31,448 nucleotides of DNA, from IMG/VR virus record IMGVR_UViG_2526164666_000034; one strand, given 5' to 3'. Source of the DNA: a virus (lineage: Duplodnaviria > Heunggongvirae > Uroviricota > Caudoviricetes). Of the stretch, positions 25,071-28,461 are shown piece by piece. The translations under genes were made by a program, and so were the position numbers. A model generated the notes under the pieces. It searched no databases, had not been told where the DNA came from, and saw only the letters and a program-made list of their open reading frames with translations. Each line of letters begins with the position of its first letter. The stretch's first letter is position 1.

Positions 25071-25095
25071 AACCGCTCCGGCGGTTTTTTTATTT
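25071..25095 (+). terminator. Intrinsic-terminator-like hairpin between terL and the protease gene
   Basis: AACCGC-TCCG-GCGGTT stem-loop followed by a T-run, 14 nt before the protease start. Confidence 0.45.
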
Positions 25096-25108
25096 TCAGG
25101 AGGCTGAT

Positions 25109-25759
25109 GTGACTCTTAAACGGGCCTGTTCCCTGCTGACGGTGAAATCCTTCAGTGAGGATGAACGGGTGATCACCGGGATTGCGTCAACGCCTTCTCC
25201 GGATCGGGATGGTGACATCCTGGAGCCGGAGGGCGCGGAGTTTGGCAGTGCGATACCGTTTCTCTGGCAGCATGACCATTCCCGCCCGGTGGGGCAGTGT
25301 ACGGTGCGCCGGGTCAGCGAAGGGCTGGAAATCACGGCAACACTGGTGAAGCCCGTACCGGATATGCCGTCGCAACTGGCTGCCCGGCTGGATGAGGTCT
25401 GGGCGGCCATTAAGACCGGGCTGGTCAGGGGGCTGTCCGTGGGCTTCCGTCCCCATGAATACACCTTTCTGGACGGAGGCGGACTGCATTTTCTGCGCTG
25501 GGAACTGATGGAGGTGTCTGCCGTCACCGTGCCCGCGAATGCGGAATGCACCATCCGGACCATTAAATCTTACGACCGCCCGTTTTCTGCCGCGTCCGGC
25601 AACCGGAAACCGGTGGTGAAAATCGCATCTTCTGCCGGCGCTGCGGCACAGTCAACAACCGTTTTTCATAAGGAAAAGACCATAATGAATATTGGCGAAC
25701 AGATTAAAAGTTTTGAAAACAAGCGTGCAGCGCTGGCAGCCTCCCTTGAGAGGTCATGA
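25109..25759 (+). CDS. Prohead maturation protease (HK97 gp4 / peptidase S78 family)
   Basis: GTG start with AGGAGG RBS; ..FLWQHD.., ..GLSVGF.., ..EVSAVTVPANAEC.. motifs are typical of S78 proteases. The last ~24 codons (MNIGEQIKSFENKRAALAASLERS) look like the capsid N-terminus. Confidence 0.8.
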   Translation: MTLKRACSLLTVKSFSEDERVITGIASTPSPDRDGDILEPEGAEFGSAIPFLWQHDHSRPVGQCTVRRVSEGLEITATLVKPVPDMPSQLAARLDEVWAAIKTGLVRGLSVGFRPHEYTFLDGGGLHFLRWELMEVSAVTVPANAECTIRTIKSYDRPFSAASGNRKPVVKIASSAGAAAQSTTVFHKEKTIMNIGEQIKSFENKRAALAASLERS

Positions 25760-26886
25760 CCAAAGCCGCAGAGGAAGGGCGCACGCTGGATGTGGAGGAG
25801 GAAGAGCATTACGACAACACCGCAGCGGAAATCCGTCAGGTGGATGCGCACCTGAAGCGCCTGCGTGAACTGGAAGCCGGTAAGGCCGCCACGGCGCAGC
25901 CGGTGAAACAGGCCGGTAACGGGAATGTGGCCGCGGTGGCTTCTGCGCCGGTGATCCGTGTGGAGCAGAAACTGGATAAGGGGATTGGCTTCGCCCGCTT
26001 TGCCAAATCGCTGGCTGCGGCTAAAGGCGTCCGATCTGAAGCCCTGGAAGTGGCCCGTCGTCAGTATCCGGATGACAGTCGTCTGCATCATGTCCTGAAA
26101 TCGGCAGTGGGCGCGGGGACCACCACGGATCCGCAGTGGGCAGGCAGCCTGTCTGAATATCAGGAATACGCACAGGACTTTATTGATTACCTGCGTCCGC
26201 AGACCATTATCGGGCGATTTGGTCAGGGCGGGATCCCTGCACTTCGTCAGGTGCCATTCAATATCCGTGTGCACGCCCAGGTGTCCGGCGGTGCTGCCGG
26301 CTGGGTGGGTGAGGGTAAGGCAAAACCCCTGACGAAGTTTGATTTTGAATCCATCACCTTCAGTCATGCGAAGGTGTCGGCCATTGCGGTACTGACGGAA
26401 GAATTGATCCGTTTTTCCAGTCCGGCTGCTGATGCACTGGTCCGTAATGCGCTGGCGGAAGCGGTGGTGGCGCGTCTGGATACAGACTTTGTGGACCCGA
26501 AAAAAGCCGCAGTGGCGGATGTCTCCCCGGCGTCCATCACCCATGATGTGAAGGGCACGGCATCAACCGGTAACCCGGATGCGGATGCAGAGGCTGCGTT
26601 TGGACAGTTTGTGGCAGCAAACCTGCAGCCCACCGGTGCGGTCTGGCTGATGTCCAGCACCAATGCCCTGGCACTGTCCATGCGTAAAAATGCGCTGGGT
26701 CAGAAGGAATACCCGGACATGACCCTGCTGGGTGGCTCCTTCCAGGGGCTGCCGGTGATTGTCTCCCAGTACGTGGGTGACCAGCTGGTGCTGGTGAATG
26801 CCCCGGATATTTATCTGGCTGATGACGGCGGTGTGGCGGTGGCGGTGATCACCGGTGTGAACTACGGAACTGCGTCCGGTGGCTGA
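25756..26886 (+). CDS. Major capsid protein (HK97 fold) with N-terminal delta domain; true start possibly at 25686 across a 1-nt frame break
   Basis: 376-aa ORF starting with an ATGA overlap; acidic coiled-coil N-terminus (..EEGRTLDVEEEEHYDN..AEIRQVDAHLKRLRELEA..) then a capsid-like body. An AAGGA RBS precedes ATG 25686 in the protease frame. Confidence 0.75.
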   Translation: MTKAAEEGRTLDVEEEEHYDNTAAEIRQVDAHLKRLRELEAGKAATAQPVKQAGNGNVAAVASAPVIRVEQKLDKGIGFARFAKSLAAAKGVRSEALEVARRQYPDDSRLHHVLKSAVGAGTTTDPQWAGSLSEYQEYAQDFIDYLRPQTIIGRFGQGGIPALRQVPFNIRVHAQVSGGAAGWVGEGKAKPLTKFDFESITFSHAKVSAIAVLTEELIRFSSPAADALVRNALAEAVVARLDTDFVDPKKAAVADVSPASITHDVKGTASTGNPDADAEAAFGQFVAANLQPTGAVWLMSSTNALALSMRKNALGQKEYPDMTLLGGSFQGLPVIVSQYVGDQLVLVNAPDIYLADDGGVAVAVITGVNYGTASGG

Positions 26887-26930
26887 GTCTGATGAGGAGG
26901 ACGGGAGGCGCGAGCTTCCCGCAGTAACAG

Positions 26931-27152
26931 ATGGCAAAAATCCAGTATCTGCAGGGCACGCATGATGCCCGGGCCGGGGATATCCGTGATGTGGCACAGC
27001 CGTGTGCGGAGGTGCTGGTTCGCCTGGGGAAGGCGGAGTACATCACAGCGCGACGTCCGGCAGGTCAGAAAAAGAAACGTGATGCGGAGCATGGCGAATG
27101 TGGAACCTTTTGCGGCGAACCCGAAAAAACCAGAAATCAGGACGTGACGTAA
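26931..27152 (+). CDS. Hypothetical small protein between capsid and portal (uncertain extent)
   Basis: ATG preceded by GGAGG...GGGAGG; the 3' part overlaps the portal N-terminus and may not be real. Confidence 0.3.
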   Translation: MAKIQYLQGTHDARAGDIRDVAQPCAEVLVRLGKAEYITARRPAGQKKKRDAEHGECGTFCGEPEKTRNQDVT

Positions 27153-28461
27153 GAGAAGTGGGCTGGCGGTCCCTGTTTCAGGCGGTGGCTGAGCCTTTTG
27201 CCGGTGCCTGGCAGCAGGGTGTGAAAGCCGATCCGGAAACCGTTTTGTCCTTTCACGCGGTGTTTTCATGCATTTCGCTGATATCCCAGGATATCGCCAA
27301 AATGCGGCTTCGCCTGATGCAGACTGATGTACAGGGAATACGCCGGGAAAAGCGGCAGGGAGATACTGCCCGTCTCTGTCGTCGTCCTAATGCGCAGCAG
27401 AATCGCATCCAGTTTTTTGAACTGTGGCTGAATTCCAAATTGCGTCACGGCAATACGGTGGTGCTGAAAATCCGCAACCCCCGGGGGCAGATCAAAGAAC
27501 TGCGTATTCTGGACTGGAACCGGGTTGAACCTCTGGTGGCGGATGACGGCGACGTGTTCTACCGCATCACGCCGGACCGGAACTGTGGGATCACAGAGTC
27601 GGTGACGGTGCCTGCCCGGGAGGTGATCCACGACCGTTTTAACTGTTTTTTTCATCCGCTTGTGGGGCTGCCGCCGGTGTATGCCGCAGGACTGGCCGCC
27701 ATGCAGGGGCATCATATTCAGGCAAATTCGACGTATTTTTTCAGAAATGGCGGGCGACCATCAGGCGTGATTGAGGTCCCCGGCAGTATTACGGAAGAAA
27801 ACGCGAAAAAACTGAAGGGGAACTGGGACAGCGGATATACGGGCGAAAATGCCGGGAAGACGGCCATACTGAGCAACGGGGCAAAATACAGCCCCACGAC
27901 GTTTTCACCGGTGGATGCGCAGACGGTGGAACAACTGAAAATGACGGCTGAAATTGTCTGTTCGGTGTTCCGTGTCCCGGCCTACAAGATTGGCGTTGGC
28001 CAGCCGCCTTCCAGTGACAACGTGGAGGCGCTGGAGCAGCAGTATTATTCCCAGTGTCTGCAGACGCTGATTGAGTCCATTGAGCTGTTACTGGATGAGG
28101 CGCTGGAAACAGGGGAAAACGAGAGCACGGAGTTTGACGTCACCACGCTGCTGAGAATGGACAGCGAACGTCGCATGAAAACGCTGGGTGAATCGGTGAA
28201 AAATACGCTTCTCACGCCCAATGAGGCCCGTAAACGTGAGAACCTGCGCCCCTTGCCGGCGGTGATGCACTGTATCTTCAGCAGCAGAACTACAGTCTGG
28301 AGGCGCTGTCCCGTCGTGATGCCCGTGAGGATCCGTTCGCGTCTTCCGGGAAAACGTCGTCAGGCACACGCCAGGAGGGCGCGTCTGACGGTAATAAGGC
28401 CATAAGCGAAACAGAGCGTGATGCGGTGAAGGCGATGTTCAGGGGGATACTGCGAAAATGA
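27081..28461 (+). CDS. Portal protein (HK97-family portal); frame broken at two homopolymer runs
   Basis: Body ORF 27098..28405 has portal-like blocks (..YFFRNGGRPSGVIEVPG.., ..ENAGKTAILSNGAKYSP.., ..TLLTPNEARKRENL..). N-terminus MANVEPFAANPK is in another frame (6-base run at 27124-27129); C-terminus ..GDALYLQQQNYSLEALSRRDAREDPF...AMFRGILRK is in another frame (4-base run at 28249-28252) and ends with an ATGA overlap. Confidence 0.75.

Follow-up and report, generated by a model that had tools for sequence, protein, structure and literature searches.

The stretch of viral DNA analysed here (31,448 nucleotides (nt); IMG/VR record IMGVR_UViG_2526164666_000034), referred to below as the window, carries a packaging and head module in which the prohead protease and the major capsid protein belong to a single gene, and this gene is the subject of what follows. 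All features of this module lie on the plus strand. The large terminase gene, terL (23384..25045), is intact and is recognised by the Pfam families PF03354 and PF20441, in agreement with RefSeq. Downstream of it come a terminator-like hairpin (25070..25097) and the gene in question, which natively spans 25109..26886 from a GTG start at 25109 and encodes protease, linker, delta domain and capsid protein in succession (PF04586 and PF05065; PHROG 617). A small open reading frame (ORF) of 73 amino acids (aa) then occupies 26931..27152 and overlaps by 55 nt the start of the portal gene (27098..28461), whose native product of 454 aa matches the portal family PF04860 (268 bits, cut-off 39.1; E = 1.4e-79). 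Where the protease gives way to the delta domain lies an internal start codon with its own ribosome-binding site (RBS), both conserved throughout the family, and the comparative evidence set out below suggests that translation of the gene probably begins at two in-frame starts.

In the window itself the gene is split into two ORFs, 25109-25759 (Pfam Peptidase_S78) and 25756-26886 (Pfam Phage_capsid). The protease ORF passes without a stop through the linker into MNIGEQIKSFENKRAALAASLE, a delta-domain-like helical N-terminus, and then terminates, while the capsid ORF resumes in the +1 frame. Alignment with the closest chromosome, E. coli strain 2313 (NZ_AP027159; 99.7-99.9 % identical to the window), locates the cause at 25749..25751, where the native GAGGAGG is GAGAGG in the window: a single G is missing, so that CTT GAG GAG GTC ATG is read as CTT GAG AGG TCA TGA. 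With the G restored there is one ORF, and the window then equals the 592-aa allele of NZ_AP027159. A preliminary description of this DNA, made from the letters alone, had noticed the run of the protease ORF into a capsid delta domain and a 1-nt frame break near 25745-25757, both of which are as it described, and had suggested that the native gene may be either a fusion of protease and capsid or a capsid gene lying in frame within the protease gene. The fusion is borne out by every close relative, each of which has a single ORF of 592-645 aa; that of NZ_AP027159, for example, has 592 aa, and those of NZ_CP101292, Stx2_EH1910, YYZ-2008 and BP-4795 have 645 aa.

The domain assignments of this ORF come from Pfam and PHROGs, which identify an S78 protease and an HK97-type capsid protein, with a portal protein encoded downstream. 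Peptidase_S78 (PF04586) scores 37.6 bits on the window ORF 25109-25759 and 34.7 bits on the intact fusion (cut-off 21), and Phage_capsid (PF05065) scores 43.9 bits in the window and 53.3 bits in the intact protein (cut-off 24.2). An intact relative aligns with PHROG 617 from residue 1 to 639, covering profile positions 7-626 of 626 (E = 8e-262). When the best 150 representatives were taken from a library of 1.8 billion proteins clustered at 50 % and searched with HMMER, 144 were fused. Among these 144, His55 in the motif LWQHD is present in 100 % and Ser110 in GLSxGF in 99 %, and the window has both; these residues are the probable counterparts of His65 and Ser114 of HK97 gp4. The only solved structure matched by sequence was the capsid protein of 9d9w, and this match is marginal (E = 0.009).

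The fused gene is also abundant. Of 5426 complete E. coli genomes, 1255 contain the surrounding 3.7-kb region, often more than once, and the fusion ORF is carried by Stx1a, Stx2a and Stx2c converting phages, by BP-4795, YYZ-2008, 1717 and 2851, and by PPompW prophages. Fusions of 644-648 aa with both PF04586 and PF05065 occur across the Enterobacterales at 73-77 % identity. The fusion of Salmonella phage FSL SP-016 is ~77 % identical and that of Pseudomonas phage PAJU2 ~49 %. Both the fusion and the gene order are what is normally found, and has already been annotated, in a very common phage lineage; the locus is essentially known. The one element that goes beyond the content of the databases is the internal RBS and start codon, conserved family-wide.

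The internal start consists of a Shine-Dalgarno (SD)-like AAGGA at 25670-25674 and an in-frame ATG at 25685-25687, codon 193 of the fusion, so that the whole element spans 25670..25687 with 10 nt between AAGGA and ATG. Both parts had been noted in the preliminary description, which placed the ATG at 25686, one base away from its actual position at 25685. Met193 is invariant in 12 enterobacterial fusions of 73-78 % identity, despite the hypervariable linker that precedes it. When these fusions were aligned with a Burkholderia capsid protein encoded by a separate gene, the latter began exactly at the Met193 column. More generally, the capsid genes of the Burkholderia and Moraxella phages, of one further unfused relative and of five capsid-only representatives all start exactly at the boundary position.

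Two larger samples, each assembled without regard to the boundary, give the same picture. The 144 fused representatives were picked by HMMER, blind to the boundary position; 125 of them have Met there, and the aligned column is Val in 11. At the nucleotide level, we retrieved 80 contigs from IMG/VR through patterns in the bodies of the protease and the capsid, ignoring the boundary, and obtained 52 unique boundaries. The boundary codon is ATG in 49 of these and GTG in the other 3, every Val case being GTG, and an SD-like motif precedes it in all 52. A further 18 loci from genome contigs had been chosen by means of the boundary peptide itself and are hence unfit for testing conservation of the Met.

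The strength of the internal SD varies within the family. In the Enterobacterales it is AAGGA with a spacing of 6-10 nt and a duplex energy of about -5.6 kcal/mol. Many members at 44-50 % identity, and PAJU2, have instead a canonical GGAGG with duplex energies of -10.8 to -12.3 kcal/mol; in these distant members it is encoded by a conserved P-x-E-G within an otherwise variable linker, and the spacing is correct. Unfused relatives have the same SD at the same place, and the difference between the fused and unfused states comes down to a single stop codon or change of frame. Taken together, this comparative evidence favours a working internal start, as expected for a capsid gene nested in frame. 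On balance we favour the view that the widespread family as a whole, with members in Enterobacterales, Pseudomonas, Halopseudomonas, Mesorhizobium and many uncultured phages, consists of nested two-start genes.

Several points weigh against two starts. Within the gene, the internal SD of the Enterobacterales ranks only in the top 4-14 % of codon positions, and it is weaker than the SD at the 5' start (-9 to -11 kcal/mol); in E. coli the long form might therefore make up most of the capsid protein. A fully fused polyprotein is sterically conceivable. The members of the family share descent, and the conservation counts given above are thus counts of non-independent events. Structure prediction offers little help here, since an AlphaFold2 model of the fusion, built from an alignment of 15 sequences, reached a mean predicted local distance difference test (pLDDT) score of only 43.6, too poor for assigning folds or for mapping deletions.

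The best-surviving alternative is that the gene encodes an obligate polyprotein, translated from the 5' start only, with a protease attached to every capsid subunit as it is made, and with the protease and the delta domain removed by autoproteolysis after assembly. The ATG and SD at the boundary would then be relics of an ancestral pair of genes, or would mark a translational pause. The much stronger 5' SD and the only moderately unusual internal SD in the Enterobacterales agree with this, as does the fact that a single mutation separates the fused from the separate state. Moreover, the fusions of actinobacteriophages and thaumarchaeal proviruses have been described simply as fusions (PMC5513430, PMC6563490). 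However, a relic would not be expected to remain ATG or GTG at every one of the 52 boundaries, down to 44 % identity and within a hypervariable linker. The commonest replacement of the Met is Val, and all three Val codons that were checked are GTG; in the distant members, the conserved P-x-E-G codons keep a strong GGAGG at the correct spacing. Conservation specific to start codons (Met, or Val encoded by GTG), together with an RBS maintained inside a variable linker, makes the relic explanation difficult, and we regard the obligate polyprotein as unlikely.

The second alternative concerns the frame break at 25749-25751, which could be biologically real, either as a pseudogenising mutation in a defective prophage or as a programmed frameshift. 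Further decay would be plausible, since the prophage has genuine lesions shared by its lineage, namely a 159-nt deletion and indels at 23267 and 29404. Against this, a 61-base query centred on the break retrieved 1160 E. coli records, all at 98.4 % identity with one gap and none identical, so that the break is missing from every other record. It is also one of 14 single-base indels, all private to the window, found in 9.3 kb beside only ~16 substitutions, a ratio typical of consensus errors. A programmed frameshift at 25749 was rejected, as the relatives are all in frame, no slippery site is conserved and 0 of the 1160 records share the break. A real break is accordingly quite improbable in our view, and the missing G is most likely a private error of sequencing or assembly.

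The order of the head genes was also examined. In HK97 the order is terL, portal, protease, capsid. The window has terL, protease, capsid, small ORF, portal, as the preliminary description had listed from the sequence, and the Pfam identities confirm each of these assignments, including that of the ORF at 27081-28461 as the portal. The order terS, terL, fusion, small ORF, portal, ORF2, gp6 is found in all 18 genome loci of species representatives, which come from Halopseudomonas, Mesorhizobium and over 15 genera of enterobacteria, and in all 80 IMG/VR loci, giving 98 related loci with none deviating. PAJU2 and FSL SP-016 also follow the head-gene order of the window, and Burkholderia phage vB_FUB47a and Moraxella phage Mcat7 have an equal order with protease and capsid as separate genes. 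The gene order is genuine: it is atypical relative to HK97 and standard in a large lineage of sequenced and annotated phages. A local misassembly or rearrangement that moved the portal 3' of the capsid, an idea raised in the preliminary description and favoured only by the departure from HK97, is refuted by this synteny and has next to no probability, given that the order recurs in 1243 E. coli genomes covering at least 80 % of the 3.7-kb query, in many independently sequenced phages, in the 18 genome loci and in the 80 viral contigs, and that none of the 98 loci has the canonical HK97 order.

The two-start reading can be put together as a possible mechanism. Translation from the GTG at 25109, behind AGGAGG and a U-rich tract, would yield protease-delta-capsid, and this long form would co-assemble into the procapsid, bringing the protease inside by a covalent tether. 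Translation from the ATG at 25685, behind AAGGA, would yield delta-capsid alone, the bulk building block of the head. As in HK97, the protease would cut itself and the delta domains away once the particle has assembled. How much is made of each product might be set by the relative strengths of the two RBSs, by the use of GTG rather than ATG at the 5' start, and by the conserved upstream hairpin and U tract. Initiation at the internal start, the proportions of the two products and the cleavage steps are inferred. For the full explanation (a native fusion module, a privately missing G, two in-frame starts and a defective copy in the window) we have reasonable, if not high, confidence.

The last component of this explanation, the defectiveness of the window copy, derives from a second lesion in the same gene. 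Alignment with relatives places the junction of a 159-nt in-frame deletion at 26834..26842, between 8-nt direct repeats GGCAGTGG. The deletion drops 53 aa (DMSREASLEM...RRRRTAAVAV) from the C-terminal region of the capsid protein, and in the window the Pfam capsid match accordingly breaks off at position 228 of the 280 in the profile, as compared to 279 of 280 in the intact protein. The window copy thus lacks a complete PF05065 domain with its C-terminal part, which applies to this copy and not to the gene family. NZ_AP027159 has the deletion allele too, as do ~36 complete E. coli genomes. Because 53 aa of the capsid C-terminal region are gone, the window prophage is probably unable to build its own heads.

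A terminator-like hairpin between terL and the protease had been placed at 25071-25095 in the preliminary description, and a terminator scan found it at 25070-25097, as GAACCGC-TCCG-GCGGTTT followed by a T-run. The hairpin proper occupies 25070-25087, and the T-run is followed directly 3' by the SD AGGAGG of the 5' start at 25098-25103. The number of terminator-like sites in the region is not above expectation (7, against 9.0 ± 3.2 in shuffled sequences), and the hairpin is therefore meaningful only because it is conserved. The hairpin and the following TTTC(G/A)TTTC(A/T)GGAG are conserved in Enterobacterales, Halopseudomonas and PAJU2. Of 58 unique regions upstream of family genes, 39 have a comparable hairpin with a T-run, as against 2.2 % of control windows. 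The stem sequences differ from member to member and yet pair, for example CCCGC/GCGGG, GCCCG/CGGGC, GGGGCCC/GGGCCCC and GGGCGCC/GGCGCCT. Judged by this pattern of conservation, the hairpin is a genuine element of the module. It could terminate transcription that is not antiterminated, stabilise the RNA, or act with its U-rich tract as a translational enhancer. A search of Rfam revealed no known RNA family over the hairpin or any other part of the head region.

The closest counterparts of the module are found in the lambdoid and Stx phages BP-4795, YYZ-2008, Stx2 phage 1717, 2851, PPompW and FSL SP-016. These have a gene order identical to that of the window, and downstream of the fusion come the same small ORF, the same portal and the same repeat protein. 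Their protease-capsid ORF is 96-99.5 % identical to that of the window, except in the Salmonella phage, as given above. It is annotated variously as 'major capsid protein', 'phage prohead protease' or 'major head protein/prohead protease'. The window differs from them in the private 1-nt deletion that splits the ORF, in its other private indels and in the 159-nt deletion specific to its lineage. In PAJU2, the corresponding gene is ORF003, labelled by its depositors 'prohead protease fused capsid protein', and the order is likewise terminase, fusion, small ORFs, portal, ORF007. Its internal ATG stands behind a canonical AGGAGG, a far stronger SD than that of E. coli. PAJU2 differs in its host, in its assignment to the genus Detrevirus and in having two small ORFs between capsid and portal.

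HK97 gp4 and gp5 belong to the same families as the two halves of the fusion (PF04586 and PF05065), and both systems use a helical, delta-like segment at the N-terminus in place of a separate scaffolding protein. HK97, however, encodes protease and capsid in two genes and has its portal gene after terL and before the protease, whereas here there is one ORF with the portal after the capsid. Sequence similarity of the fusion to capsid proteins of solved structure is marginal.

Single-gene fusions of the same kind have been reported from Arthrobacter phages of clusters AM, AU and AN and from Rhodococcus phage RRH1 (PMC5513430), and from thaumarchaeal proviruses (PMC6563490). Some of the actinophage fusions are reported to have little or no sequence similarity to one another, which hints at independent origins. 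Neither paper discusses an internal start (PMC5513430, PMC6563490).

Nested genes with a second in-frame start are established for proteases and scaffolds. In lambda C/Nu3 and in UL26/UL26.5 of HSV-1 (herpes simplex virus type 1), a second in-frame start within a protease/scaffold gene gives a shorter and more abundant product. A nested in-frame protease/scaffold gene was recently reported for HFTV1 as well (gp17/gp17.5; bioRxiv 10.64898/2026.09.13.751334). The present gene resembles all three in having one frame, an N-terminal protease and an assembly domain downstream. It differs in that the nested product would be the whole of delta domain and capsid rather than a free scaffold, and in that use of the internal start is deduced here from conservation alone. 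The searchable literature has descriptions of fusions and of nested protease/scaffold genes, and we found none of an internal start in a protease-capsid fusion; a literature search on the E. coli fusion gene likewise returned nothing experimental.

If the internal start is used, the family illustrates a way of adjusting the amount of a covalently tethered maturation protease to that of the capsid protein, and the principle of lambda C/Nu3 and herpesvirus UL26/UL26.5 would extend to the capsid protein itself. Stx1a, Stx2a and Stx2c phages carry the module, as do many prophages of Shiga toxin-producing E. coli (STEC), so that it matters for the mobility of toxin genes which copies can still make heads. 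For annotation, the two ORFs of the window should be merged into one protease-capsid gene, and the break and ~13 neighbouring frameshifts treated as sequence errors.

The remaining genes of the module are as follows. It opens with an HNH endonuclease gene (22171..22536; PF01844, with the same annotation in relatives), which lies 5' of terS in most related loci. The small terminase gene, terS (22826..23387), was recognised through a PF03592 match on ORF 22758-23303. It is broken in the window by four private 1-nt indels (22845, 22874, 23284 and 23310) and by the lineage-shared one at 23267, and is intact in NZ_CP101292, where it encodes 187 aa. The small ORF at 26931-27152 belongs to PHROG 829, a family of unknown function, is annotated as WP_001063025.1 and matched no Pfam family. 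It has counterparts at the equivalent position in Salmonella, Burkholderia and Moraxella phages, although identity to the Burkholderia and Moraxella counterparts is only 27-29 % and homology there is tentative. The portal loses its frame in the window through a private 1-nt deletion at ~28246, and the ORF as listed stops at 28405; the native stop is at 28458-28461, where it forms an ATGA overlap with the next gene, and this agrees with the end coordinate in the preliminary description. This gene, ORF2 (28458..29519; PHROG 2271, positions 455-859), encodes a repeat protein that always follows the portal. The protein consists of tandem repeats of ~53 aa, variable in copy number between strains, with a weak CBM_5_12 match at its C-terminus. 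Two indels interrupt ORF2 in the window, a private one at 29243 and a lineage-shared one at 29404. A gp6-like head-tail connector (adaptor) gene follows at 29516..29842 (PF05135, in agreement with the annotation of relatives), and downstream of it are head-closure and gp10-like genes.

The databases label the portal and ORF2 of this module in a misleading way. RefSeq marks the portal as 'frameshifted' and stretches it across ORF2, and PHROG 2271 is a 'portal' family of 859 positions. In YYZ-2008, one extra G (G6 as opposed to G5) 20 nt before the portal stop creates a fused 'portal' of 861 aa. Elsewhere the stop of the portal overlaps the start of ORF2 in an ATGA, as in BP-4795, Stx2_EH1910, FSL SP-016 and most genera, and in Rouxiella the two genes are 3 nt apart. 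A programmed frameshift joining portal and ORF2, to which the 'frameshifted' label from PGAP and the length of PHROG 2271 had pointed, is ruled out by these three observations. Since the fused record stems from an extra G and the genes otherwise overlap or are separated by a gap, portal and ORF2 are two genes. The 'portal' label of ORF2 traces to records such as YYZ-2008, and the widespread 'frameshifted portal' of this module is itself an artefact, introduced by a single phage record that has one G too many.

As a whole, the window is an ompW-integrated lambdoid prophage of E. coli, of the PPompW / Stx-phage type, and the nearest phage records are those named 'Enterobacteria phage PPompW'. 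An integrase gene (1-1131, minus strand) is followed by the immunity and replication regions, paa, Q, transfer RNA (tRNA) genes, a NanS-p esterase gene and lysis genes, and then by the head module. Sequence quality is suspect throughout. The 14 single-base indels relative to NZ_AP027159 mentioned above fall within 22.1-31.4 kb, and a four-way alignment with three relatives showed that 14 of 14 are private to the window; the first 22.6 kb have 18 further gap positions relative to the same chromosome. Many of the private indels are not in homopolymers, and substitutions over the whole window number only a few dozen. This ratio of indels to substitutions is atypical of divergence, and the private indels therefore look like consensus errors. 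The genes hit by them are terS, the fusion gene, the portal, ORF2 and several further downstream; terS, portal, ORF2, the gp10-like gene and tail genes appear as artificially split ORFs as a result. Three lesions, the terS indel (23267), the ORF2 indel (29404; both 1 nt) and the 159-nt capsid deletion, are common to the window and NZ_AP027159 and are taken as real because they are shared.

Rfam identified three small RNAs in the window outside the head module: DicF (4537-4588, minus strand), the sok antitoxin RNA adjoining hokD (11703-11852, plus strand) and the small RNA STnc100 (16153-16325, plus strand). ARAGORN predicted three tRNAs at 15134-15374, namely Met-CAT (tRNA-Ile in the annotation of the relative), Lys-TTT and Arg-TCT. 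Only the first and the third are backed by Rfam and by the RefSeq annotation of the closest relative, and the middle one may be degenerate or affected by sequence errors. In Stx phages this is the position of stx, and the window has no stx there. The virulence gene paa, encoding an adhesin of the AcfC family, lies at 10757-11515, between the replication and Q regions, and is likewise found in NZ_AP027159.

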